From the IMG/VR virus record IMGVR_UViG_3300042293_000433: a stretch of DNA of 64,000 bases. One strand, given 5' to 3'. Positions 6,047 through 60,108 of the stretch are shown here, one piece after another; the stretch's first letter is position 1; the number at the start of each line of letters is the position of its first letter. The notes beneath the pieces were generated by a model. The model ran no database searches. It worked only from the letters and a program-made list of their open reading frames with translations, and was not told where the DNA came from. Source of the DNA: a virus. Taxonomy: Duplodnaviria > Heunggongvirae > Uroviricota > Caudoviricetes. The position numbers were made by a program, and so were the translations under genes.

Positions 6047-6757
6047 TTATTCTTTTATTTCTATTGAACTCCAATCATTTGTTTCACTGTCCCATATCCA
6101 AATAGGATTAGCTAATACATAACGAATGTTTAATAACGATGCATTCAAACTTATCATACCTTCTAGCGGCACTTCGGTTTCCTCTTTAATCATTCCACCA
6201 CATTCATGTATGTGTCCAAATACGTGGACCTTAGGGTGTATGTCGTTGATTCTATTGGCTAACATTTCACATCCAACATGGTAGTTGCCTCTTACACTTA
6301 CATCAAATCTACCATATCTCGGTGTATGTGTCACTAACAAATCTACACTTCCGTCCGTTGGAACTTTTTGCCATACTTCATCTAACTCTGCGTTTCTTTG
6401 TTTCATAAATGCCCACATACCGAATACAGGAGACCATGGGCTACCATAGATACCTAATCCATCAATGTTTATAAAACTATCTTCTAAATAGGTAACTCCA
6501 TAATTGTTTGCTAATAACCAATTACGCCTATCGGTTTGCTGTAACACAAAATCATGATTACCCGCTACTAATACTTTATGTTTTGCATTTTGTTTGCTAA
6601 ACCAATTCATAAATAAATCGGTTTCTTCAAACTCACCATAACGAGTACAATCCCCACTATGCACAATAATATCTACATAGGGTAACTCACCATATAATTC
6701 AGTAATCTCAAGATGTCTACCATGAGTGTCACTTAAAAACATTATTTTCATAACCAA
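6047..6757 (-). CDS. calcineurin-like metallophosphoesterase
   Basis: 236 aa; ordered MPP motifs LSDTHGRH (DxH), HSGDCTRYG (GD), AGNHD (GNHD), GHIHE (GH). Confidence 0.75.
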   Translation of the reverse strand: MVMKIMFLSDTHGRHLEITELYGELPYVDIIVHSGDCTRYGEFEETDLFMNWFSKQNAKHKVLVAGNHDFVLQQTDRRNWLLANNYGVTYLEDSFINIDGLGIYGSPWSPVFGMWAFMKQRNAELDEVWQKVPTDGSVDLLVTHTPRYGRFDVSVRGNYHVGCEMLANRINDIHPKVHVFGHIHECGGMIKEETEVPLEGMISLNASLLNIRYVLANPIWIWDSETNDWSSIEIKE

Positions 6758-7886
6758 TTAATTTATCTATTTCTAATATTGTATTTGTAGGATTAAAACT
6801 ATCCATTATAAACTTATAATTCTTTTCTAATCTTTGTTGAACACTATCCGATTCATATATTGCCTTAACTTTATCAATTGATAATTCATTGATTCGTTTT
6901 AAAGCATCTACAAATAGTTCTATTCTTTGTGTTTCCGTTTTATTATCATCCCAACCAATTTCTAATCCAAATACATCTTCAAATGTTTCTATTCCATATT
7001 GTCTCAATGCTGAGTTAAATCCATTACATTGTAAAGATAAGAATATATTTTTACATAACCAAGATCTAATTGTTTTTTCTGTTAATCTTAAATCATCCCC
7101 ACTATCACCACTGCTCTCAATAGTAAATGAAATATATGAATCTAATGAGTTTGTATTGATACTATCATACATATCATTTGTATCTGAACTTTGTATTTGT
7201 CCTAATGCTACCGCATCTTTGTTCTCATATATAAAAAACTCATTTACAAATTGATTTAAGTATTCGATATCAATTACTAAATCATCATTACCACTACGTC
7301 CCCCACCAGGTCTATTTCTATAATTAATAAAATCTTCTATTGTAGAGAGATTACCAAACGTATCTTTTTTTATTATATTACCAAAGGTATAATAACATTC
7401 GTTTAATTCAATACCTTTTTTTTTGAGCAATTCAAATATTTTAAGTCTTCGTAAATTTATAGACCTATTAAAGAAATTAAACTTCTTTGTTCTATTATTG
7501 TTTGGTATATATGCTACTTTTGAAAACAAGTTTGTAAATGGATAACATCTATTTTTAAATGATATATCATTTTCAATACTATACACATCTAAATGCGTTG
7601 TTAAGAAATATATAGTATGATTTGTATTTCTATTTTCTACAATTGCTTTACGCCTATGTTCATTACAATATTCATGTTTAATAAACAAAAATATATTTAA
7701 TTTTAAATTTGGATTTACTGATTCATTTATCTTATCGATTGTATCTAATGTAATAAATAATACATCATTATCTTTAAGATTATCAATAAAACTAAAATCA
7801 TTATATTGTAATTCTATAAGATTATACCCAATTGATTCAAAATATTTAAAGTCTAAACCATAAATAGAATCGTAATAAAATGTCAT
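6729..7886 (-). CDS. GT10-like (alpha-1,3-fucosyltransferase family) glycosyltransferase paralog
   Basis: 385 aa; FTIESS...LTEKTIRSWLCKNIFLSL resembles FucT motif FENS....YxTEK(L/F)W; shares this plus FNFFNR..RLKIFELL block with 22263..23360 and 23353..24609. Confidence 0.4.
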   Translation of the reverse strand: MTFYYDSIYGLDFKYFESIGYNLIELQYNDFSFIDNLKDNDVLFITLDTIDKINESVNPNLKLNIFLFIKHEYCNEHRRKAIVENRNTNHTIYFLTTHLDVYSIENDISFKNRCYPFTNLFSKVAYIPNNNRTKKFNFFNRSINLRRLKIFELLKKKGIELNECYYTFGNIIKKDTFGNLSTIEDFINYRNRPGGGRSGNDDLVIDIEYLNQFVNEFFIYENKDAVALGQIQSSDTNDMYDSINTNSLDSYISFTIESSGDSGDDLRLTEKTIRSWLCKNIFLSLQCNGFNSALRQYGIETFEDVFGLEIGWDDNKTETQRIELFVDALKRINELSIDKVKAIYESDSVQQRLEKNYKFIMDSFNPTNTILEIDKLIGYENNVFK

Positions 7887-7887
7887 T

Positions 7888-8085
7888 TTATATTTTTAAA
7901 TCTTTAATCGTATCAACTATATCTGCTTCATCTTTATATATTTCATATACCTTATCCAATGCGTCATTATAGGCCACTTCTGCTATTTTATGTGCATCAT
8001 CTAATTTAATATACGAAAATGTATCACCATCTTTGTTTTTAAGCGAAAGGAAGCCAGTTGCTTTTAATTTGTTTTCCCATTTCAT
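7888..8085 (-). CDS. hypothetical protein
   Basis: 65-aa ORF. Confidence 0.35.
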   Translation of the reverse strand: MKWENKLKATGFLSLKNKDGDTFSYIKLDDAHKIAEVAYNDALDKVYEIYKDEADIVDTIKDLKI

Positions 8086-10971: not shown

Positions 10972-11277
10972 TTATTTGTTTGTTATTATATCGTAATCGT
11001 ACACTATTTCATTTAAGAATTTAATAAAACTAAATGGGTCAACCAATGTTTTAGAATCTATATCATATCTAATTGATTTACCACCATCTACTGCTAATCG
11101 TCCTTTAAATTTGTTTTTATCAAATTCATCTCTATCAAGTGTATATGAACAATCATTATCATAATTTTCATGTACAAAATTAAATCTATAAAAATCAGGT
11201 TCAGTTTGTATTTTCTTTATCTCAACCTGCATTGCATTGATTGGATATAACTTATCTATGTTTTTTATTGTTAGCAT
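10972..11277 (-). CDS. MLTIKNI-family small protein (paralog 1)
   Basis: 101 aa; N-terminus MLTIKNIDKL; DNA at start identical over ~22 nt to 12859..13182. Confidence 0.5.
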   Translation of the reverse strand: MLTIKNIDKLYPINAMQVEIKKIQTEPDFYRFNFVHENYDNDCSYTLDRDEFDKNKFKGRLAVDGGKSIRYDIDSKTLVDPFSFIKFLNEIVYDYDIITNK

Positions 11278-11278
11278 A

Positions 11279-11596
11279 TTATCTTACTTTTATTGGTTTT
11301 CTATATTTTTCTATTAAATAAATTATATCCGATATCAGTATTGATTTATTTTCCACAATAGTATTGGAAATCTTAAAGTATTTTGTTGGACTATATCTTA
11401 TACTATATTTACCCCCATCACGTTCTTTCATCAAGTCAATTCGGAAATATCTATTAATATCCGTATCTAAAACTGCAAATGAATATGAATTGGTAAAATC
11501 CTTAACTGAATGTATTTTATATTTGCCCAGTACTTCACCTATTACTTTATCTATATTGTGTATCTTTAGCATATTATTCGTATTCGTTTCTGTCAA
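11279..11596 (-). CDS. MLTIKNI-family small protein (paralog 2, N-extended)
   Basis: 105 aa; internal MLKIHNIDKVIG after a 9-aa extension. Confidence 0.45.
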   Translation of the reverse strand: MTETNTNNMLKIHNIDKVIGEVLGKYKIHSVKDFTNSYSFAVLDTDINRYFRIDLMKERDGGKYSIRYSPTKYFKISNTIVENKSILISDIIYLIEKYRKPIKVR

Positions 11597-12713
11597 TATT
11601 AATTACATATGGAAAACGGGGTATACCATCAGGTGTTAAATTAAAATACTTAATCGTTGCTTGCTTACCGATTAGTTTCTTTTTACTCTTTAACATCTCA
11701 GCCGTTTCATCCCAAGTTCCTTTTACATTTGATTTGAAAGGTTTACCATCAATCGTTTCAAATACCATATAACCAGCAGTTCCAGTTCTATTACCTTCAC
11801 CCTCTACGATATCTAAAATAGTATATTCATCATCAACAAACGATTTATGTTTTAATAAGTTCTTACTTCGTTTGTTTTCATACTTACCATTCGTTCTTAA
11901 CATCTGACCTTCGTAACCTTTCTCTACATACCCACCATATAATTCCATAACTTCATCTTCATTATCAACTTTATATGTTTGTACTATTCTACAATACTTA
12001 CCTACTTGTGAAAATGTTTCAAATAGTATTCCTAAATCATACATTCTTTTTACAAAGTTATTATCTGAACTAGGTAAATCGTATATGTGATACTCTATAC
12101 TTTTTTCACTTTCAATTAAATCCTCTTTAGTTGGTTTTGTTTTTTTAACCAAAGATACAATCTTATTGAAATCATTAGCGAACTTATCGGCATATAACTC
12201 ACCATCTAATATCAAATCAGGATTCATTACAAATACATGCCATAAGCTATACATGATATGTTGCGCTGAAAGAATAGGTTTACCATTTCTGCTAAACATA
12301 CCATCTTTTGTCACTATACAACGAATACCATCTAACTTAGCTTGCGAATAAATTGGATATGTAACCTTATCTTTACTATCTTCCCATTTAGCGGCTAACA
12401 TTGGTTCAAAGTATTGTGTTTTGTTTATGTGTTTGATATTCTCAAAGTAACCACTCTCTAACTTCTTTGTTCGTTTAGCTACCGCCTCTGCCATCGTTTG
12501 TTCTTTATCCGTAGTTTCATTTGCTCTACCAATATTCTTACCATAACAAATTGTCCACTCATTCGTAGTAATAGCACCGCCAACTTGTCCACTATGGGTT
12601 CGGTATTTATTACCTACTACTTCAATTGTCCATTCTTGCGTTGCACCGGTCTTTGTTTTTTTGTAAATAGTTTCTAATTTCATATTATAAATTTTTGTTA
12701 TATTAGGAGTCAT
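11574..12713 (-). CDS. lig: ATP-dependent DNA ligase
   Basis: 379 aa; adenylation motif I KLDGIRCIV (KxDG), YEGQMLR and downstream nucleotidyltransferase/OB-like blocks; true start may be the second ATG (12683) because the first 30 nt belong to a duplicated leader. Confidence 0.85.
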   Translation of the reverse strand: MTPNITKIYNMKLETIYKKTKTGATQEWTIEVVGNKYRTHSGQVGGAITTNEWTICYGKNIGRANETTDKEQTMAEAVAKRTKKLESGYFENIKHINKTQYFEPMLAAKWEDSKDKVTYPIYSQAKLDGIRCIVTKDGMFSRNGKPILSAQHIMYSLWHVFVMNPDLILDGELYADKFANDFNKIVSLVKKTKPTKEDLIESEKSIEYHIYDLPSSDNNFVKRMYDLGILFETFSQVGKYCRIVQTYKVDNEDEVMELYGGYVEKGYEGQMLRTNGKYENKRSKNLLKHKSFVDDEYTILDIVEGEGNRTGTAGYMVFETIDGKPFKSNVKGTWDETAEMLKSKKKLIGKQATIKYFNLTPDGIPRFPYVINIDRNEYE

Positions 12714-12753
12714 TCTCTCGACTCAATACATAAAGATACGACTTTATATTGGA
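12681..12753 (-). repeat. 73-bp duplicated 5' leader (copy A; copy B at 21569..21641)
   Basis: 70/73 identical to 21569..21641; sense strand ends exactly at an ATG and contains TCGTATCTTTA plus a GAGTC/GACTC inverted repeat. Confidence 0.8.
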
Positions 12754-12790
12754 TTGGCAATGCCCTAAGTGAACTAATTTTGAAAGTTTT

Positions 12791-12812
12791 TATTGGGAAT
12801 CAACGAGTTACG
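12791..12812 (-). promoter_or_regulatory. operator-like palindromic element (variant copy)
   Basis: plus-strand tattgggaatcaacgagttacg; matches 22-bp consensus cattgaTaatcaatTagttaRg at 16/22 (three length-conserved, weaker variant copies exist). Confidence 0.35.
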
Positions 12813-12858
12813 CCAATATAACCCTAACATATTAGGTATTTTTAATATATGATACCTA

Positions 12859-13182
12859 TTATTTAAAATTATAGTTATCCAATTTTGCCAAACATTTAGT
12901 TATCATAACTGCCAAATCGGCTGCACTTCTAACATCTGAATTATCTATTTCGACTTCGGTAGCTGCTGCCCATCCCATAACATATAGTTTATAATTACCT
13001 TGTGGTTTTTTATCTCTGTCTAAATAAACTTCACAATCCGGTTTGCCCGCACCATCATCTTTAAATACAAATACATAAGAATCATAATTCATTCTTTGAT
13101 TATGTAGATTATAAAATTCTTTTATGGTTCGGCTATTACACGTATAACCAACCATTTTTTCTATGTTTTTTATTGTTAGCAT
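12859..13182 (-). CDS. MLTIKNI-family small protein (paralog 3)
   Basis: 107 aa; MLTIKNIEKM. Confidence 0.5.
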   Translation of the reverse strand: MLTIKNIEKMVGYTCNSRTIKEFYNLHNQRMNYDSYVFVFKDDGAGKPDCEVYLDRDKKPQGNYKLYVMGWAAATEVEIDNSDVRSAADLAVMITKCLAKLDNYNFK

Positions 13183-13183
13183 G

Positions 13184-13483
13184 TTATATTAATTCATCTA
13201 TTAAAAATCGGATAAAGATATCTCTATCCCCTATACTCTCTATTGGTAGGTAGTGTCTATTACCTGTCTCTTGGCAATACATAAGATAATCACCATTGGA
13301 TGTCTTAACCCTACCAATGCTAAAGTTAAACATATCAAAGGGTGAGCCATTATGTACTACTTTAATAAGATAGTTATCCTTCGACTTAGTCACATAGTGT
13401 ATCTTCCAATGGCCAACGTATGTCCCCGTAAGAGAATCTATGTTTTTTATTGTAAGCATATTATAATTTTTCAAGTTTAGCAA
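13184..13483 (-). CDS. MLTIKNI-family small protein (paralog 4, N-extended)
   Basis: 99 aa; MLNLKNYNMLTIKNIDSL: the motif occurs twice; DNA around second Met near-identical to paralogs 1 and 3. Confidence 0.45.
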   Translation of the reverse strand: MLNLKNYNMLTIKNIDSLTGTYVGHWKIHYVTKSKDNYLIKVVHNGSPFDMFNFSIGRVKTSNGDYLMYCQETGNRHYLPIESIGDRDIFIRFLIDELI

Positions 13484-13724
13484 TTACATCCATTACATCT
13501 TCGGGTCTTAAATAACCAAGTACATCATTCGTAATCGGCGTATCGTAACATATTTCACCATCTTTGAAAATAGCTAATTCATACAATCCGATATCACCAC
13601 CATACGAGTGCGGACTTTGTACTACTGATACTTCATATCCATTATCTAATTTAGTTCTACTTACAATACCAAAATCAGCACCCATAGGGTTTGTTTTAAA
13701 TTCAATATCTTTAAATGTTTTCAT
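13461..13724 (-). CDS. hypothetical protein
   Basis: 87-aa ORF. Confidence 0.4.
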   Translation of the reverse strand: MKTFKDIEFKTNPMGADFGIVSRTKLDNGYEVSVVQSPHSYGGDIGLYELAIFKDGEICYDTPITNDVLGYLRPEDVMDVIAKLEKL

Positions 13725-13777
13725 AATTTGTTTTATTTAATCTATAAAGGTAGTTAATTTTTCTGATACTACCAAAT

Positions 13778-14128
13778 CTATTTATATGCTTTAATAGGTT
13801 TAATTTTCATTTGCCAATTATTGTTACCCGCCATTTGGCATATCATATAACCAAACCAATCTTTGTTTTTAATACAATTCAAAGTCACTTCGGTTCTTAA
13901 ATGAGATGCGTGTGTTTGATACATAACATAGTTACCACTATATTTTGCACTACTATCCCTTAATAAAGTAAATCCAATATAATCTTGTATTGTTCCATTT
14001 CCTTTTGTCAATGAAACTGTTATTGCATACTTTTCCGTACCTTCGTTTATATCCTCAATAGATAATGTATAACCATCACATTCAATATAATCACCTTTAA
14101 GTTCATTATAGTTTTTAATATTTAACAT
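13778..14128 (-). CDS. MLTIKNI-family small protein (paralog 5, divergent)
   Basis: 116 aa; MLNIKNYNELKG. Confidence 0.4.
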   Translation of the reverse strand: MLNIKNYNELKGDYIECDGYTLSIEDINEGTEKYAITVSLTKGNGTIQDYIGFTLLRDSSAKYSGNYVMYQTHASHLRTEVTLNCIKNKDWFGYMICQMAGNNNWQMKIKPIKAYK

Positions 14129-14131
14129 ACA

Positions 14132-14659
14132 CTATGGTTTAAGTAGTTTAATATGTTTACACGTTTGTGGTGTTTCTTTACTATATTGGTATGCAGGACA
14201 AGTACAACTCCAGTCACTCGTACCCAATACATTTTCTGTCACTTGATATAATAAATTAGGACCTGATTGACTTGCTACACTATGTATAATTTCGGTTAAT
14301 GTCATATCAGTCATGCCCATTGTATCAGGTTGTACCACTTCTAAATTAACTTTATTTGCCACATCATACATACTATCGATAACAAATTCCTTAAATCGTT
14401 CTATTGTTAGAATTGAATCTTTTACGATAGGTATATTTTCATGTATATACCAACCATCCATACCATCACCGATTGCACATATTTTAACATTATATTGGTT
14501 TTTATCCCAATTCATTTCAAACAATACACAATTACTCCAACTTCCGTCGTGTACTTGTTGAACAAAGAATCCCTCTTTACATACATCAATTTCAATTTCA
14601 GTATTTCCAAATTTAATTTTTTCGTTATCTACTTTGTGAAAGTTTTCTGGCTTTTTCAT
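14132..14659 (-). CDS. SWIM zinc-finger protein
   Basis: 175 aa; C-terminal WSCTCPAYQYSKETPQTCKHI = CxCx(n)CxH SWIM signature. Confidence 0.5.
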   Translation of the reverse strand: MKKPENFHKVDNEKIKFGNTEIEIDVCKEGFFVQQVHDGSWSNCVLFEMNWDKNQYNVKICAIGDGMDGWYIHENIPIVKDSILTIERFKEFVIDSMYDVANKVNLEVVQPDTMGMTDMTLTEIIHSVASQSGPNLLYQVTENVLGTSDWSCTCPAYQYSKETPQTCKHIKLLKP

Positions 14660-15060
14660 ATTTTATAAATTTTAATTTTTGTTAATTTAGTTTGTTTATC
14701 GTTTGCTCCAATTAATATATCAATTCGTTTCTTATATCGTTTGTTCATTACATCGTGAACTCTATATGTACCATCATATTTACCGGCACCAACAATTCTA
14801 ATCTTTTGTCCAAACTTATATTTCTTTTTTAAATCTCTACTAACTGCAATAATTCTATGTTTCTTTGGATTAGTAATCTTAAATCCACTCGCAGTTATAT
14901 TTGGTGTACTATCCGTTTCGGCTGCATTTGCTTTATATGTGGTTAGTGTCACTATTTCGGGAGTAATCGTTTCAATCATTGTGTTGATTCTTAATTCCTC
15001 TCGTTCCATTTCGTAAGGTAAACATACCATTGCGATTGCTAGTATTATATTGTAATTCAT
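14656..15060 (-). CDS. 3D-domain protein (MltA/YocH-like, putative cell-wall hydrolase/lysis-associated)
   Basis: 134 aa; N-terminal hydrophobic segment; ITASGFKI..RIIAVSRDL..FGQKIRIVGAGKYDGTYRVHDVMNKRYKKRIDILI fits 3D-domain pattern (tAsG..iAv..fG.ki.i.g.G.y.v.D.g..i.g..iDi). Confidence 0.45.
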   Translation of the reverse strand: MNYNIILAIAMVCLPYEMEREELRINTMIETITPEIVTLTTYKANAAETDSTPNITASGFKITNPKKHRIIAVSRDLKKKYKFGQKIRIVGAGKYDGTYRVHDVMNKRYKKRIDILIGANDKQTKLTKIKIYKI

Positions 15061-15063
15061 AAC

Positions 15064-15420
15064 TTATAATAATTTAGGTGTCCATTCATCCGTTAGTAAT
15101 TTAAGTTTGTCCATTAGACTATCCATATTGACAATATCTTCATGCTTTATCCAATAGGGATATCTTACACAATATGCTTCATTACTCCATTTTCCAATTG
15201 TATAATAACCATCCGATATAGCTGATGGGTTAAGTTCTACCGGCCTTCTATTTAATATAATGATATGTCTCATATTACCTCGCCATACATTAATTCTATA
15301 TTCATCTCTCCTTTCATCAATATCCTCAATGTAGTTTTTATCATCCCATTCTTTACGGAATAGTTTTTCAAAGTTCTTAATTGTTAGTTTCATAATATTT
15401 TCTTTTATGTCTTTCTTCAA
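15064..15420 (-). CDS. MLTIKNI-family small protein (paralog 6, N-extended)
   Basis: 118 aa; MKKDIKENIMKLTIKNFEKL. Confidence 0.4.
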   Translation of the reverse strand: MKKDIKENIMKLTIKNFEKLFRKEWDDKNYIEDIDERRDEYRINVWRGNMRHIIILNRRPVELNPSAISDGYYTIGKWSNEAYCVRYPYWIKHEDIVNMDSLMDKLKLLTDEWTPKLL

Positions 15421-21415: not shown

Positions 21416-21601
21416 TTATTTACTATCGTTATGTTTAAATACTATTTCAAACTTTCTATCTTCAATAGAAAAACTATCTAAAACGATTTGTAATTGTTTA
21501 GAAAGATTATCTAATTTAGACTCATCCGTAAATTCAAACTCAATGTTGAACTGAAATGTTACATTACTCATATTATAAATTTTTGTTATATAAGGACTCA
21601 T
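21416..21601 (-). CDS. small hypothetical protein (likely starts at internal ATG 21571; first 10 codons lie in duplicated leader)
   Basis: 61-aa ORF MSPYITKIYNM...; N-terminus encoded by the 73-bp repeat shared with the ligase gene. Confidence 0.4.
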   Translation of the reverse strand: MSPYITKIYNMSNVTFQFNIEFEFTDESKLDNLSKQLQIVLDSFSIEDRKFEIVFKHNDSK

Positions 21602-21641
21602 TCTCTCGACTCAATACATAAAGGTACGACTTTATATTGGA
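21569..21641 (-). repeat. 73-bp duplicated 5' leader (copy B)
   Basis: 70/73 identity with 12681..12753. Confidence 0.8.
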
Positions 21642-21690
21642 CTTTGAACAGTCAAAGGTAACTATTTTTAGGTTTTTCAAAGATTTTTGA

Positions 21691-21712
21691 CTGACTATCA
21701 ATGAGTTACATA
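21691..21712 (-). promoter_or_regulatory. operator-like element (half-site copy)
   Basis: plus-strand ctgactatcaatgagttacata; right half atcaatgagtta matches consensus. Confidence 0.3.
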
Positions 21713-21758
21713 TATGATTTTTTTATATATGGGTAAAAAGGTGTAGACATAGATAACC

Positions 21759-21780
21759 CATTGAGAATCAATAAGTTATA
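21759..21780 (-). promoter_or_regulatory. operator-like palindromic element
   Basis: plus-strand cattgagaatcaataagttata, 18/22 to consensus. Confidence 0.4.
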
Positions 21781-21783
21781 ACT

Positions 21784-21805
21784 CTTTGATAATCAATGGG
21801 TTAGG
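21784..21805 (-). promoter_or_regulatory. operator-like palindromic element
   Basis: plus-strand ctttgataatcaatgggttagg; core ttgataatcaa is a perfect inverted repeat. Confidence 0.45.
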
Positions 21806-21861
21806 AATTTGAGTTATTATATTACATTTTTATATAATATCAACCCTTATTTTATGTATTA

Positions 21862-29719: not shown

Positions 29720-29802
29720 AATTCTGCCCACACTACCAAAACTATTTATAACCTATTGAATATCAACACATTATACACATCCATTTAGGGTAATGTATAA
29801 CA

Positions 29803-29824
29803 CATTGATAATCAATTAGTTAAG
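29803..29824 (-). promoter_or_regulatory. operator-like palindromic element (best copy)
   Basis: plus-strand cattgataatcaattagttaag; core attgataatcaat is a perfect 13-bp palindrome. Confidence 0.5.
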
Positions 29825-31982: not shown

Positions 31983-32013
31983 ACTCTTTAAGTTTATATG
32001 TGAATAAATATTG

Positions 32014-32064
32014 TTAGAAGATAGTAGGGGAATCGAACCCCTACCATGTTTCCAAAACTATCTT
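32014..32064 (-). other. tRNA-like fragment / hairpin (T-arm only)
   Basis: minus-strand sense contains GGTAGGGGTTCGATTCCCCTAC (canonical T-stem-loop GGTTCGATTCC) enclosed by a 9-bp stem gaagatagt/actatcttc; no D or anticodon arm could be fitted. Confidence 0.35.
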
Positions 32065-32301
32065 AGTTTATCTGCGAATTAAGCAGAAATCTTAGCTCTA
32101 CTAGCTAATTGTTGTAATCTTTGAGAATAGTACAACGCTCTACTTGTGTAGTAAGTACGCTTTTGCTCACTACTTGTAGTGTTTGCATTTGTTAAAGCTT
32201 CTGTCAATTGATTCGTGATAAATTCGAACTTTGATTTTAAAGTAACCATTTTGTGTTTTCCAGTTTTTTATGTGGTGGCTCCACGTTTATTAAAAAAATC
32301 T

Positions 32302-32601
32302 TTAATTGCTTTTCATACCTTTACATACCCCATATCCTTGTCTTTGTGATAATCTATATAATCGTGCAGCATCTGCAGCAGGCATAATTTGTATTTCGTT
32401 ACCCGTCTTATGATTTGCTATTGCAACCCCACCAACTTTTTCTACCGAACTACAATTGATACAATTTCGATATCCGTATTTTTCATATCTAAGTTGCGGC
32501 ATATCGTTTTTACATTTAATACATTTAATCATTAATAACTTACCCATAATTATTATTGTTTGATGAAACATAAAGATACGATAAATATCTGAAACCGCCA
32601 A
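32302..32601 (-). CDS. zinc-ribbon protein (probably starts at internal ATG 32547)
   Basis: CIKCKN...CINCSS paired CxxC; TCGTATCTTTA motif lies inside the long ORF at 32571-32581, implying the shorter 81-aa form. Confidence 0.45.
   Translation of the reverse strand: MAVSDIYRIFMFHQTIIIMGKLLMIKCIKCKNDMPQLRYEKYGYRNCINCSSVEKVGGVAIANHKTGNEIQIMPAADAARLYRLSQRQGYGVCKGMKSN
32571..32581 (-). promoter_or_regulatory. conserved upstream motif TCGTATCTTTA (sense)
   Basis: plus-strand taaagatacga 24 nt upstream of internal ATG 32547. Confidence 0.4.
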
Positions 32602-32677
32602 ACATTTTGGAAAGTATTTTGTAAGGTACTGATATTCAGTTAGTTACACATTAGCGTTTATTCTAATATAGATAAGT

Positions 32678-32699
32678 CATTGATTATCAATTAGTTAGG
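32678..32699 (-). promoter_or_regulatory. operator-like palindromic element
   Basis: plus-strand cattgattatcaattagttagg; 13-bp palindrome attgattatcaat. Confidence 0.5.
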
Positions 32700-33132
32700 T
32701 AAATTGGTGTATTTCGTTGTATCTATTCAATATAGACCTAATGTTTTCAGCACCTACCGGATTTGCTGAATGTATTAAATATGTAGGCATTGGTAAACCA
32801 TTTTCACTACAATATTCAATTAACCATTTTGCACAATCATATCCCGTTTTTTCTTTGAAATCTGCTTTTAATGGGTCAGGTGGATTTTCTCTACCACCAT
32901 TATCAAAATAGTAGTTTATATGTTCCTCACCTAAATCGTGGTCAAACGATACAATATTAGGGAGGCCATTAAGTGCGATTGTTCCTATAAATTCACCATA
33001 AGACCTAACTACTTTCCATTTTAAATCTTTATACCTACTATCACCACTTTTTTTAAAGGATGCTTTAGGTTCTCTAATATCATCTAAATATAAATTGTAA
33101 CTCTCTTGCATATCACGTTTCCATTTAATCAT
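32695..33132 (-). CDS. hypothetical protein (flavodoxin/receiver-like pattern)
   Basis: 145 aa; hydrophobic-DD (LYLDDIR), hydrophobic-D (ISFDHDLG), hydrophobic-S (LIHSANP) spacing reminiscent of a CheY-like fold; speculative. Confidence 0.45.
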   Translation of the reverse strand: MIKWKRDMQESYNLYLDDIREPKASFKKSGDSRYKDLKWKVVRSYGEFIGTIALNGLPNIVSFDHDLGEEHINYYFDNGGRENPPDPLKADFKEKTGYDCAKWLIEYCSENGLPMPTYLIHSANPVGAENIRSILNRYNEIHQFT

Positions 33133-57832: not shown

Positions 57833-60108
57833 AGATTCAAATTTAATGTTAAAGAAATTGTTCGTTCGTTGTTTGTTTTTATCAAATTTCGGTTTTGTAA
57901 CTTTTGATAATAGATTGATGGTTGACCTAACACATCACCTATTGCCAATTTTATTTCACCTTTATTTAATTTATGTAAAAGGGTAACATCCAATACATCT
58001 CTGCTGTTTTCAAAAATGTCTGGATAACCCTGAAATCCTATTGCTGATATTCTATCTCCTACTCTATTGTAAGTTATGTTAAGTGTGTTTTTCTTTTTAT
58101 GTATATTCACGCCACCATTTAATACATAGTTTGATTGTCCTTGTAATTGTCTTTTAACTCCTTTCACGTTTACTTCCGAATTCATTACCGAAGCGTTTGT
58201 ATAAAAATCAAACCATTCAGTTACCTTTTTACGAAATTCTAATTCAACACCATAAAGATATGCGTTATCAGGATTTGAGTAAGTTAATAATAAGTTTGAT
58301 GGAACTGAACCATCAGCTACTACTTGCTCAATTGGTTTTATGAAGTTCTTACCAAATAGGGATACTGAAATATTCTCTCCTACTTTTGGATATAACTCCC
58401 ATTTCAAATCTAAATTATATATGTCAGATTTTTCCAATTTAGGATTACCCAATAATTGTGCGTTTCTTACAAAATCATAATAAGCAAAATTAGCTACTTC
58501 TCTAAACTCCGGCCTTGCTAATGTTTTACTTAATGAAAATCTATACTTCGTTTTTTCTAAATTGTATGAAAGATTTAATGATGGTAATACATCCAAATAC
58601 TCTCTATTAACTTTAACTTTACTTCCACTAAAATCTGCGGTAGATACATCAAATAAATTATATTCGGTTCTAACACCCGTATTTAATTTCCATAAACCAA
58701 ATTCTTTATCCAACATTACATACCCACTACCTAAATCAAAATCAGCAGTGTATTTGTCTGTGTTGTTTGTTATCTCGTCTAACATATCAGTTGAAAGATA
58801 ACGAAATATTCTTGCGTTAAATCCTCTAATTTTTTTTAAGTAACCACCACCAATCTTAATATCACCAAATGATTTGTTAATGTTACCACTAAAAGAGTTT
58901 TCATCCATCACACTCCAAAAACGATATGTATCTCTCCATGCGGTAGCATAGGGTTCGTTTACTCCCAATGATTTTGTAATTGGATTAACTCTATAATCAG
59001 GTTGCTCTCTAAAGATAAAATTGTATCCTAAATTAAAATCCCAAGTTTTAAGTTTACCATCAAATTGAGAATTAACTACAATGTTGTTTATATGGTTAGA
59101 TGAATTACTATGAACATTTTGAACATTATCATAGTTCTCACCATTTCTATTCATATAAGAATCATCAGCTTGATAGTTCACTAATGTTTTCCAACTATAT
59201 CGGTTCTCACCTAAATAAGTTAAATTCAATAAACCATTTGCGGAAAATCTTTTTGTATATAATGTATCTTTATAATCGTATGCTAATTCAGTTGAGGATT
59301 GATAATCTATTCTATCTATGTAATTTAATCCATATGAGTTTCTAATAGTTGAACTGAATAAAGCATTGAATTTATTTTTCTTTACACCAAATGATAAACC
59401 ACCATTTAAGTTTGGAGATGAATTAAATCCATCTACTATTGGATTACTAAATTGCTTTGTATATAATCTTTTATCACCATTACTACTAACTCTATATCCG
59501 TATGTAGATGGGAATGTGGAAGGGAATTCAGTAGCTTGAACTAACTTAAAATCCTTTAAAGTTGAAACCAAACCCCAACCACTTCCCAATGAGATATTGA
59601 AGAAATTATCGGAAACTTCTTTTGTTGTAATTTGTACCAAGCCACCACTCCAATCTCCTGGTTGATTTGCTGATGCTGATTTAGCAACTATAATATTATC
59701 AATTAAAGCTGTTGGAATTATATCAAATGAAAATGCTCTCCTATCAGGTTCAGTTGATGGTAGGAGTGTTTTGTTTAGGATAGCCGAATTGTATCTATCT
59801 GCTAATCCTCTTACTAATACAAACTTATCGTTTTGTATTGTTACACCACTTACTCTTTTAAGTGCATCACCTACATTTCTGTCAGGTGTTTTTTTAATAA
59901 ATTCTATGGATACACCATCAGAAACTACCGATGAATTTCGGATAGTTGTTATTACTGCTACTTCGGTAATTTTCTTACCCGCTGAACGAACTGTAACTGT
60001 TGTTAGTTTTTTTGAAAATAGAGTGTCTTGTGAAAATGATATAAATGGTAAGGATAAAAGGACAAATAAAAATACTCTCATAAACATATTAGGGTTTGTT
60101 TTCCCCAA
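57829..60108 (-). CDS. TonB-dependent outer-membrane receptor
   Basis: 759 aa; signal peptide; plug-domain-like N-terminus (DRNVGDALKRVSGV...VRGLADRYNS...FDIIPTALIDNIIV) then long beta-barrel-like region with aromatic-rich C-terminus. Confidence 0.65.
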   Translation of the reverse strand: MGKTNPNMFMRVFLFVLLSLPFISFSQDTLFSKKLTTVTVRSAGKKITEVAVITTIRNSSVVSDGVSIEFIKKTPDRNVGDALKRVSGVTIQNDKFVLVRGLADRYNSAILNKTLLPSTEPDRRAFSFDIIPTALIDNIIVAKSASANQPGDWSGGLVQITTKEVSDNFFNISLGSGWGLVSTLKDFKLVQATEFPSTFPSTYGYRVSSNGDKRLYTKQFSNPIVDGFNSSPNLNGGLSFGVKKNKFNALFSSTIRNSYGLNYIDRIDYQSSTELAYDYKDTLYTKRFSANGLLNLTYLGENRYSWKTLVNYQADDSYMNRNGENYDNVQNVHSNSSNHINNIVVNSQFDGKLKTWDFNLGYNFIFREQPDYRVNPITKSLGVNEPYATAWRDTYRFWSVMDENSFSGNINKSFGDIKIGGGYLKKIRGFNARIFRYLSTDMLDEITNNTDKYTADFDLGSGYVMLDKEFGLWKLNTGVRTEYNLFDVSTADFSGSKVKVNREYLDVLPSLNLSYNLEKTKYRFSLSKTLARPEFREVANFAYYDFVRNAQLLGNPKLEKSDIYNLDLKWELYPKVGENISVSLFGKNFIKPIEQVVADGSVPSNLLLTYSNPDNAYLYGVELEFRKKVTEWFDFYTNASVMNSEVNVKGVKRQLQGQSNYVLNGGVNIHKKKNTLNITYNRVGDRISAIGFQGYPDIFENSRDVLDVTLLHKLNKGEIKLAIGDVLGQPSIYYQKLQNRNLIKTNNERTISLTLNLNL

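Follow-up and report, generated by a model that had tools for sequence, protein, structure and literature searches.

Introduction

IHF recognizes the sequence WATCAR-N4-TTR, a consensus defined in E. coli, and kinks DNA at two steps that are 9 bp apart. One of the kinks is located inside the WATCAR element and T44, the central T of TTR, is positioned 6 bp from the nearest kink. At IHF-assisted promoters, e.g. lambda pL, Mu Pe, ilvPG, and sigma-54 promoters, the bend is placed upstream of the core promoter and acts in a manner that depends on the helix face. IHF sites also serve origins and cos sites, and they occur subterminally in IS10, IS1, and Mu. RIP/RIB elements, i.e. the IHF-binding BIMEs of enterobacteria, are reportedly high-copy extragenic IHF sites that are often located 3' of transcription units. 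In phages, TF1 of SPO1 is a DNABII homodimer of the HU/IHF family that is encoded by the phage itself and has preferred sites at phage promoters.

IHF-type sequence-specific bending is regarded as a proteobacterial speciality. Bacteroidetes have an exclusive IHF-alpha-like clade and no IHF-beta, and the oligomeric state and the specificity of these proteins have been posed as a question (2025 preprint). The IHF/HU protein BHFa from B. thetaiotaomicron participates as a host factor in CTnDOT integration.

Here, we analysed 64,000 nucleotides of DNA from a virus of the Caudoviricetes (IMG/VR record IMGVR_UViG_3300042293_000433), referred to as the window, which carries a repeated dyad with an IHF-type consensus in both of its halves. 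A literature search for the core sequence itself yielded no relevant paper. Sites of this kind are already known, but the dyad-symmetric form, the lineages in which it is at home, and its use as a module by phages appear to be undescribed in the literature searched.

Results

The window is part of a large uncultured phage

The window has a GC content of ~30%, all of its plausible genes are on the minus strand, and 2956 bp (4.6%) are non-coding. It encodes a MoxR-like AAA ATPase, an ATP-dependent ligase, GP88-family and cREC_REC proteins, glycosyltransferases, and an outer-membrane beta-barrel protein, and many of its proteins are shared with IMG/VR contigs of 57-251 kb. Based on this gene content and on the shared proteins, the window is part of a large uncultured phage. 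Window proteins also occur as exact copies in the JGI metagenome samples 3300042563, 3300042567, and 3300042892, in ENA and Logan assemblies, and in one NCBI assembly. The phage has no close cultured relative; cultured phages contain no DNA near-identical to window positions 20-34 kb, and a protein search of cultured phages with the 714-aa gene gave two distant matches only. A PHROGs search with the ten largest ORFs was uninformative.

Neither ARAGORN nor Rfam called a tRNA or RNA family in the window. The gap 31983-32078, for which both call nothing, contains a tRNA-like T-arm and 3' end (GGTAGGGGTTCGATTCCCCTACTATCT) that may be what is left of a tRNA, or else an att-like fragment. Six ORFs of the region 10972-15420 (at 10972, 11279, 12859, 13184, 13778, and 15064) encode paralogous proteins of ~100 aa with N-termini like MLTIKNI[D/E]K, a family for which no Pfam match was found.

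A 25-bp dyad is repeated in four intergenic gaps

When the intergenic gaps are read on the sense strand the element is a 25-bp dyad, TAAC-N3-TTGAT-W-ATCAA-N3-GTTA. The window contains eight copies, six of them full and two of them half-sites combined with an A-tract, in four intergenic gaps that are located upstream of the ligase gene, a gene for a 61-aa protein, the MoxR gene, and a zinc-ribbon gene. The copies and the boxes or promoters predicted downstream of them are as follows:

12731..12739, minus strand: -7 box of the ligase gene (GTATCTTTA), no TTTG -33 element
12786..12810: upstream of the ATP-dependent DNA ligase gene, asymmetric (TAACTCGTTGATTCCCAATAAAAAC), less than 8 bits with the symmetric matrix
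21619..21627, minus strand: -7 box of the 61-aa gene (GTACCTTTA), one TTTG candidate at 21656-21653
21684..21708: asymmetric site, promoter-distal half perfect (TAACTCATTGAT), proximal half an A5 tract (GTCAGTCAAAAA), 8.7 bits
21754-21778 and 21779-21803: two abutting full dyads, centres 25 bp apart, 1 and 0 mismatches, 31.2 and 32.4 bits
29709..29740, minus strand: predicted Bacteroidota-type sigma-A promoter of the MoxR gene, -33 TTTG at 29740-29737, -7 TATCTTTA at 29716-29709
29749..29773: proximal dyad of the MoxR pair, 2 mismatches, 22.6 bits
29798..29822, sense strand TAACTAATTGATTATCAATGTGTTA: full 25-bp dyad, distal of the MoxR pair, 0 mismatches, 31.2 bits
32571..32602, minus strand: predicted promoter of the zinc-ribbon gene, -33 TTTG at 32602-32599, -7 at 32578-32571
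32622..32646: proximal degenerate dyad of the zinc-ribbon gene (TAACTAACTGAATATCAGTACCTTA), 17.8 bits
32673..32697: full dyad, distal of the zinc-ribbon pair, 1 mismatch, 31.9 bits

Exact matches to the 13-bp core ATTGATWATCAAT are found at 29804-29816 and 32679-32691, and matches with a single mismatch at 21760-21772 and 21785-21797. With up to one mismatch allowed, the core is found five times in the window against 0.87 expected matches, and the 25-bp pattern TAAC-N3-TTGAT-N-ATCAA-N3-GTTA, with up to three mismatches, is also found five times (0.31 expected). A weight matrix built from relatives, with Markov shuffles as background, gave seven matches of at least 8 bits (0.27 expected), and six matches of at least 16 bits as compared to none in the shuffles. 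All dyad copies are intergenic, against the non-coding share of 4.6%, and the copies at the ligase and the 61-aa gene count as one event, as they belong to one duplicated module of ~150 bp. The dyad is real and under selection. The fifth core match (59298-59310) lies inside a 759-aa ORF, has one mismatch and no flanking arms, and looks like a chance occurrence.

The initial annotation had described a 22-bp palindromic element. The element is indeed real and repeated, but the 22-mer is one side of the 25-bp palindrome, the right arm of which had been missed in every copy. Similarly, the 13-bp core is present at the places named there, but the copies 29749-29773 and 32622-32646 had been overlooked. 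The assignment to the gaps upstream of the four genes holds for all eight copies, the restriction to intergenic DNA agrees with the matrix scan, all seven matches of which are intergenic, and, as noted there, no coding feature accounts for the element. A box with the sequence TCGTAYCTTTA is located downstream of the sites in each gap, and the site centres are 44-139 bp away from it.

At the MoxR gene the centre of the proximal dyad (29761) is 44 bp upstream of the G of GTATCTTTA, i.e. at about -57 relative to the predicted transcription start. At the zinc-ribbon gene the right half of the proximal dyad is a perfect WATCAR-N4-TTR and its centre is 55 bp upstream of the G of the -7 box at position 32579, while distal dyad and stop codon of the cREC_REC gene (32695-33132) overlap, an arrangement also seen in another viral locus (L044). 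The zinc-ribbon ORF (32302-32601) was mechanically called with a TTG start that overlaps the predicted promoter of the same gene; translation probably begins further downstream, at the ATG of MGKLLMIKC (MGKLLMIKCIKC...).

The abutting dyads 21754..21803 are located in a gap of 260 bp, upstream of both the 61-aa gene and the GP88-family gene, and dyad sites are also found upstream of GP88 homologues in two other viral loci (L056, L018). The same gap contains the asymmetric site 21684-21708, of which 12786-12810 is a duplicate. The duplicated module of ~150 bp (12670-12830 and 21558-21720) heads the DNA ligase gene and the 61-aa ORF, respectively, and comprises half-site and A-tract, a promoter that has no -33 element at the proper spacing, the 5'UTR, and codons 1-11 (M[T/S]P[N/Y]ITKIYNM). 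From TCCAATATAAAG through these codons the two modules are ~96% identical over ~75 nt, and a 10-bp indel, located between site and promoter, distinguishes them. The A5-tract variant is the promoter-proximal site in three other viral loci (L003, L006, L010) as well.

Together with its surroundings the abutting pair (21749-21808) forms a larger imperfect palindrome with the outer arms TAACCCATTGA and TCAATGGGTTA, which was not seen in the abutting pairs of the relatives examined. As it could fold into a hairpin of -23 kcal/mol (z = -6.7), one may ask if the element works as nucleic-acid structure, i.e. as RNA hairpin, terminator, or DNA cruciform. Single sites, however, reach only -1.7 to -8.9 kcal/mol, with a 1-nt centre and no U-tract, whereas the real terminators of the window are GC-rich hairpins followed by T-runs. 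Moreover, the complementarity of the spacer positions ±6 to ±9 is 0.45, 0.36, 0.56, and 0.69 as compared to the expected 0.41, 0.28, 0.53, and 0.65, i.e. there is no covariation, and Rfam gave no match. A structural role is thus very improbable, and the hairpin/terminator reading was rejected because of the weak folding of single sites and the lack of spacer covariation.

The dyads are located upstream of predicted Bacteroidota-type promoters

In sigma-A promoters of Bacteroidota the -33 element is TTTG and the -7 element, at -12 to -5, is TAnnTTTG (PMC9723704). The TCGTATCTTTA box of the dyad gaps corresponds to this -7 element, being TAnnTTTG-like and having TTTG ~20 nt upstream. At the MoxR and the zinc-ribbon promoters, which are predicted from the sequence, the arrangement is TTTG-N20-TATCTTTA, the last base of the -7 element being A and not G, and the architecture TTTGG-N-TCGTATCTTTA recurs in dozens of relatives. 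The TTTG candidate at the 61-aa gene is ~26 nt upstream of the -7 box and therefore outside the range of about 19-21 bp by which the -33 and -7 elements are separated in Bacteroidota promoters.

The dyads are located upstream of the -33 element, with site edges at least 8 bp away from it. In the phages the distances from the proximal site centre to the G preceding the TA of the -7 element cluster at 43-44, 53-55, and 65-68 bp, and the site-to-box distances show a suggestive periodicity (Rayleigh p ~0.003 at 11 bp and 0.017 at 10.5 bp; n = 19, strictly dereplicated), a modest statistic for which several periods were tried. The proximal distances in the window are 44 bp (MoxR), 55 bp (zinc ribbon), and 59 and 69 bp for the ligase and 61-aa-gene duplicates, which are one helical turn apart from each other but out of phase with the 44/55/66 series. 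Neighbouring sites in viral loci (81 pairs) are most commonly spaced by 25 bp (17 pairs), followed by 27-30 bp (16 pairs) and 48-49 bp (11 pairs), whereas bacterial loci favour 44-50 bp and never show 25 bp.

Just like at the IHF-assisted promoters, an architectural bend upstream of the core promoter, dependent on the helix face, may be proposed. In contrast to these systems, however, the dyads accompany -33/-7 promoters of the Bacteroidota type and are arranged as pairs or triplets with spacings of 25, 27-30, and 48-49 bp.

The arrangement also bears on the idea that the dyads are cis elements for replication, partition, or packaging, e.g. an origin enhancer, a centromere-like site, or a cos-like bend, perhaps operating via an IHF-like protein. 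The largest non-coding gap (21602-21861) indeed combines three copies with AT-rich DNA, and in other systems IHF sites serve origins and cos sites. In two viral loci (L006, positions 6400-6480, and L114) two perfect DnaA boxes in tandem (TGTGGATAA, TGTGGATAAGTTGTGGATAA) come immediately after a dyad pair, upstream of a promoter, and this arrangement resembles the IHF-plus-DnaA-box architecture of an origin. In the window, however, the copies are spread over four gaps, each having its own promoter, the distances to the -7 box are preferred and roughly helically phased, and the gaps showed neither DnaA boxes nor iterons. A role in replication or packaging is thus improbable.

Both halves match the IHF consensus

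Read outward from the centre, each half of the dyad is W-ATCAA-NNNN-TTA, i.e. it equals the E. coli consensus WATCAR-N4-TTR in exact register. The half-site logo of 119 non-exact viral copies consists of W at position 0, ATCAA at +1 to +5, a weak N4, and TTA at +10 to +12. The search pattern placed no constraint on the centre, which nevertheless is A/T in every one of these copies, and the G at +9 is the least conserved of the specified bases. Among 175 copies from a Microscillaceae genome position +5 is A (0.75) or G (0.25) and +9 is uninformative, and therefore the informative positions are exactly those of the IHF consensus. All nine of them agree with WATCAR-N4-TTR, the consensus defined in E. 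coli, in identity and register.

As the IHF kinks are 9 bp apart and T44 is 6 bp from the nearest one, the dyad of the IHF-DNA complex falls on W, the centre of the palindrome. Judged by this geometry, the register of the palindrome would fit the IHF complex, with the T of TTR at +11 corresponding to T44. The consensus is, in contrast to E. coli IHF sites, present in both halves, as expected if a homodimer and not an alpha/beta heterodimer made the contacts on both sides. The asymmetric sites (21684-21708 and 12786-12810, and those of L003, L006, and L010) resemble E. coli IHF sites in yet another way, as their non-consensus half contains an A-tract, and those with an A5-tract have the same layout and spacing as the canonical lambda H' IHF site.

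The dyad is widespread in phages and in Bacteroidota chromosomes

A scan of IMG/VR with the exact pattern yielded at least 118 viral loci, 36 of which encode homologues of window proteins. Viral copies with up to two mismatches are mostly fully intergenic (163/208), as compared to an ORF coverage of ~81%. Seven relatives, the MoxR proteins of which are 57-84% identical, keep a site pair or triplet in the gap that separates the 714-aa gene from the MoxR gene, while the bases around the sites diverge. One viral locus of visibly higher GC content and with sigma-70-like promoters (L018) has four site pairs, each of them between a terminator and a promoter.

Some viral loci show further features next to the sites. 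In one viral lineage, comprising L010 (1789-2620) and ~17 other viral loci, a site pair directly follows a Mom-family (PF25680) gene, and these loci also encode a DruA-like protein and a DNA polymerase of family B. In L111 a non-coding region of 550 bp (7450-8000) contains six dyads, which are CAAC/GTTG-flanked variants with a second repeat, (C)TGACTACAT(G), interspersed among them.

In species-representative bacterial genomes a scan yielded at least 120 loci. Among the matches listed 96 of the 120 are from Bacteroidota, eight are from one NPL-UPA2 MAG, and six from Fibrobacterota; the rest comprises four loci of the PVC group, five of other phyla, and one unclassified locus. Gammaproteobacteria are not represented among the matches listed. 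When two repeat-rich MAGs are left out, 75 of the 81 exact bacterial sites among the matches listed are outside ORFs.

A Microscillaceae MAG contains 210 copies in 204 kb (~1/kb), 193 of them intergenic. Strong IHF sites in E. coli are far sparser than that. In this MAG sites are present in 63-73% of the tandem, divergent, and convergent gaps (19/26 for the convergent ones) and are found between housekeeping genes, e.g. frr, pyrH, trpC, tsaB/D, and acrB. As the motif also occurs between convergent genes, it is not intrinsically a promoter element. In this regard the dyad resembles the RIP/RIB elements, but it has no flanking REP palindromes, its flanks are not conserved, and in phages it is tied to promoters. 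A MITE/REP/BIME-like repeat, considered as the motif is high-copy and intergenic in one MAG, was rejected since only the 25-bp site is conserved and the flanks are merely AT-rich.

In the NPL-UPA2 MAG-914 (L119, L121, L130, L137, L140, L175, L216, L226) the exact site is part of an identical repeat of ~55 bp at contig ends, TACTG-[site]-CAAAAAGGGTGCGTAACTCGTGT, which is followed by unique DNA. As judged from its sequence, the repeat is probably the end of a multicopy IS/transposon with a subterminal IHF-type site. Like IHF sites, the dyad is placed both upstream of promoters and next to probable ends of a mobile element.

This distribution also bears on the proposal of the initial annotation that the dyads belong to the regulon of a dimeric regulator, i.e. 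that they are operators of a repressor or activator encoded by the phage that co-regulates phage genes. Conserved dyads at several promoters of one region (12.8-32.7 kb) and their retention at the orthologous promoters of relatives would suit such operators, and the fixed pair spacings of 25 and 48-49 bp, found in phages and not in bacterial loci, could reflect the cooperative binding of a phage protein. Nevertheless, the motif is dense in bacterial chromosomes, occurs at mobile-element ends, and is present in phages of unrelated gene content and promoter type, and the sites are clear of the -33/-7 elements. Additionally, neither a helix-turn-helix nor any other DNA-binding Pfam family was found in 75 small ORFs (E<8e-4) or next to the sites, and, among the families listed, Pfam reveals no clear transcription factor for all 111 ORFs. 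Operators of a phage regulator are thus unlikely, the odds being only slightly better than for a role in replication. What persists of the proposal is a dyad-symmetric putative protein site that is reused near promoters; a phage-specific regulon is at odds with the pervasive occurrence of the motif in Bacteroidota chromosomes. A phage-specific promoter class, also put forward there, is not borne out either, as the TCGTATCTTTA box is an ordinary sigma-A -7 element of Bacteroidota and the motif is found in phages with another type of promoter as well (L018).

Discussion

Based on the agreement with the IHF consensus we lean towards the view that the dyad is a candidate high-affinity site for a homodimeric IHF/HU (DNABII) protein, which would bend the DNA upstream of promoters. 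The most plausible binder would be the 'IHF-alpha-like' protein of a Bacteroidota host, or else a DNABII protein encoded elsewhere in the phage genome. A search for DNABII genes (six-frame HMM, phmmer) found none in the window or in ~14 kb of flanking DNA. Among all viral and bacterial loci searched, only L015/L112 encode an IHF-like DNABII protein, ~2.7 kb from the site; a tblastn search of cultured phages with this protein yielded enterobacterial, Burkholderia, and Bacillus phages, and no Bacteroidota phages are among the matches listed. The hosts of the dyad, i.e. Bacteroidota and other members of the FCB/PVC groups, differ from E. coli in that they are reported to lack IHF-beta.

If bound by a DNABII protein, the dyad would share with TF1 of SPO1 the combination of a homodimer of the HU/IHF family with preferred sites at phage promoters. 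TF1 differs, however, in that it prefers hydroxymethyluracil DNA, overlaps and represses early promoters, and has no crisp consensus, and, in contrast to SPO1, no DNABII gene was found in the window.

The most serious rival is another conserved regulator or nucleoid protein of FCB/PVC hosts that does not belong to the DNABII family, the match to the IHF consensus being coincidental. A winged-helix dimer, for example, might read TAAC and GTTA in major grooves two turns apart and contact the AT-rich core with its wings. The two blocks are ~21 bp apart and on the same face of the helix, which suits a helix-turn-helix dimer, the chromosomal abundance and the taxonomic restriction require only some conserved host protein, and the assignment to DNABII is itself based on sequence. 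On the other hand, the inner blocks are 6 bp apart from centre to centre, which does not suit a classical dimer and its two recognition helices, all nine half-site positions fit WATCAR-N4-TTR in register, the A-tract variant mimics canonical IHF sites, and the copy at mobile-element ends fits the known usage of IHF. Thus, we regard such a protein as unlikely, albeit clearly less so than the operators or cis elements discussed above.

For a homodimeric DNABII protein the following scheme may be envisaged. The two beta-arms would insert their prolines at the TT|GAT and ATC|AA... steps, 9 bp apart, and read the minor groove of WATCAR, while the flanking TTA/TAA (TTR) would be clamped to the body of the protein on both sides, resulting in a sharp U-turn. 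The phage would place one to three such sites just upstream of promoters used by the host RNA polymerase (-33 TTTG / -7 TAnnTTTA), the sites tending towards a fixed helix face, their centres being near -57, -68, and -79. Binding might then shape the architecture of the promoter, for instance by folding the upstream DNA back onto the polymerase, and the effect, the sign of which we infer, would most likely be a stimulation of these promoters, which are predicted to serve genes of DNA metabolism and auxiliary genes, i.e. those for the MoxR ATPase, the ligase, the GP88-family protein, and the zinc-ribbon protein. Abutting sites with a distance of 25 bp would be tight for two proteins with footprints of more than 25 bp.

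In a more general view, Bacteroidota, and probably other FCB/PVC bacteria, may possess a sequence-specific homodimeric IHF-like nucleoid protein with the site YAA-N4-TTGAT-W-ATCAA-N4-TTR, which would be pervasive (~1/kb) in some Cytophagales and which large phages may have co-opted as a paired, helically phased upstream promoter module, including the phage-specific abutting pairs of 25 bp. We put the chances of this proposal at slightly less than even.

A symmetric IHF consensus is under strong selection in intergenic DNA of Bacteroidota, at the ends of mobile elements, and in promoter regions of phages. If the proposal is true, it would answer whether the IHF-alpha-like protein of Bacteroidetes is a sequence-specific homodimer, and the 25-bp site TAACTCATTGATAATCAATGAGTTA as a probe provides a concrete and cheap test of the specificity of this protein. 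Moreover, the dyad is a ready-made annotation feature for promoter regions of uncultured jumbo phages, a possible marker for phages of FCB/PVC-group hosts, and a candidate part for promoter engineering in Bacteroidota.
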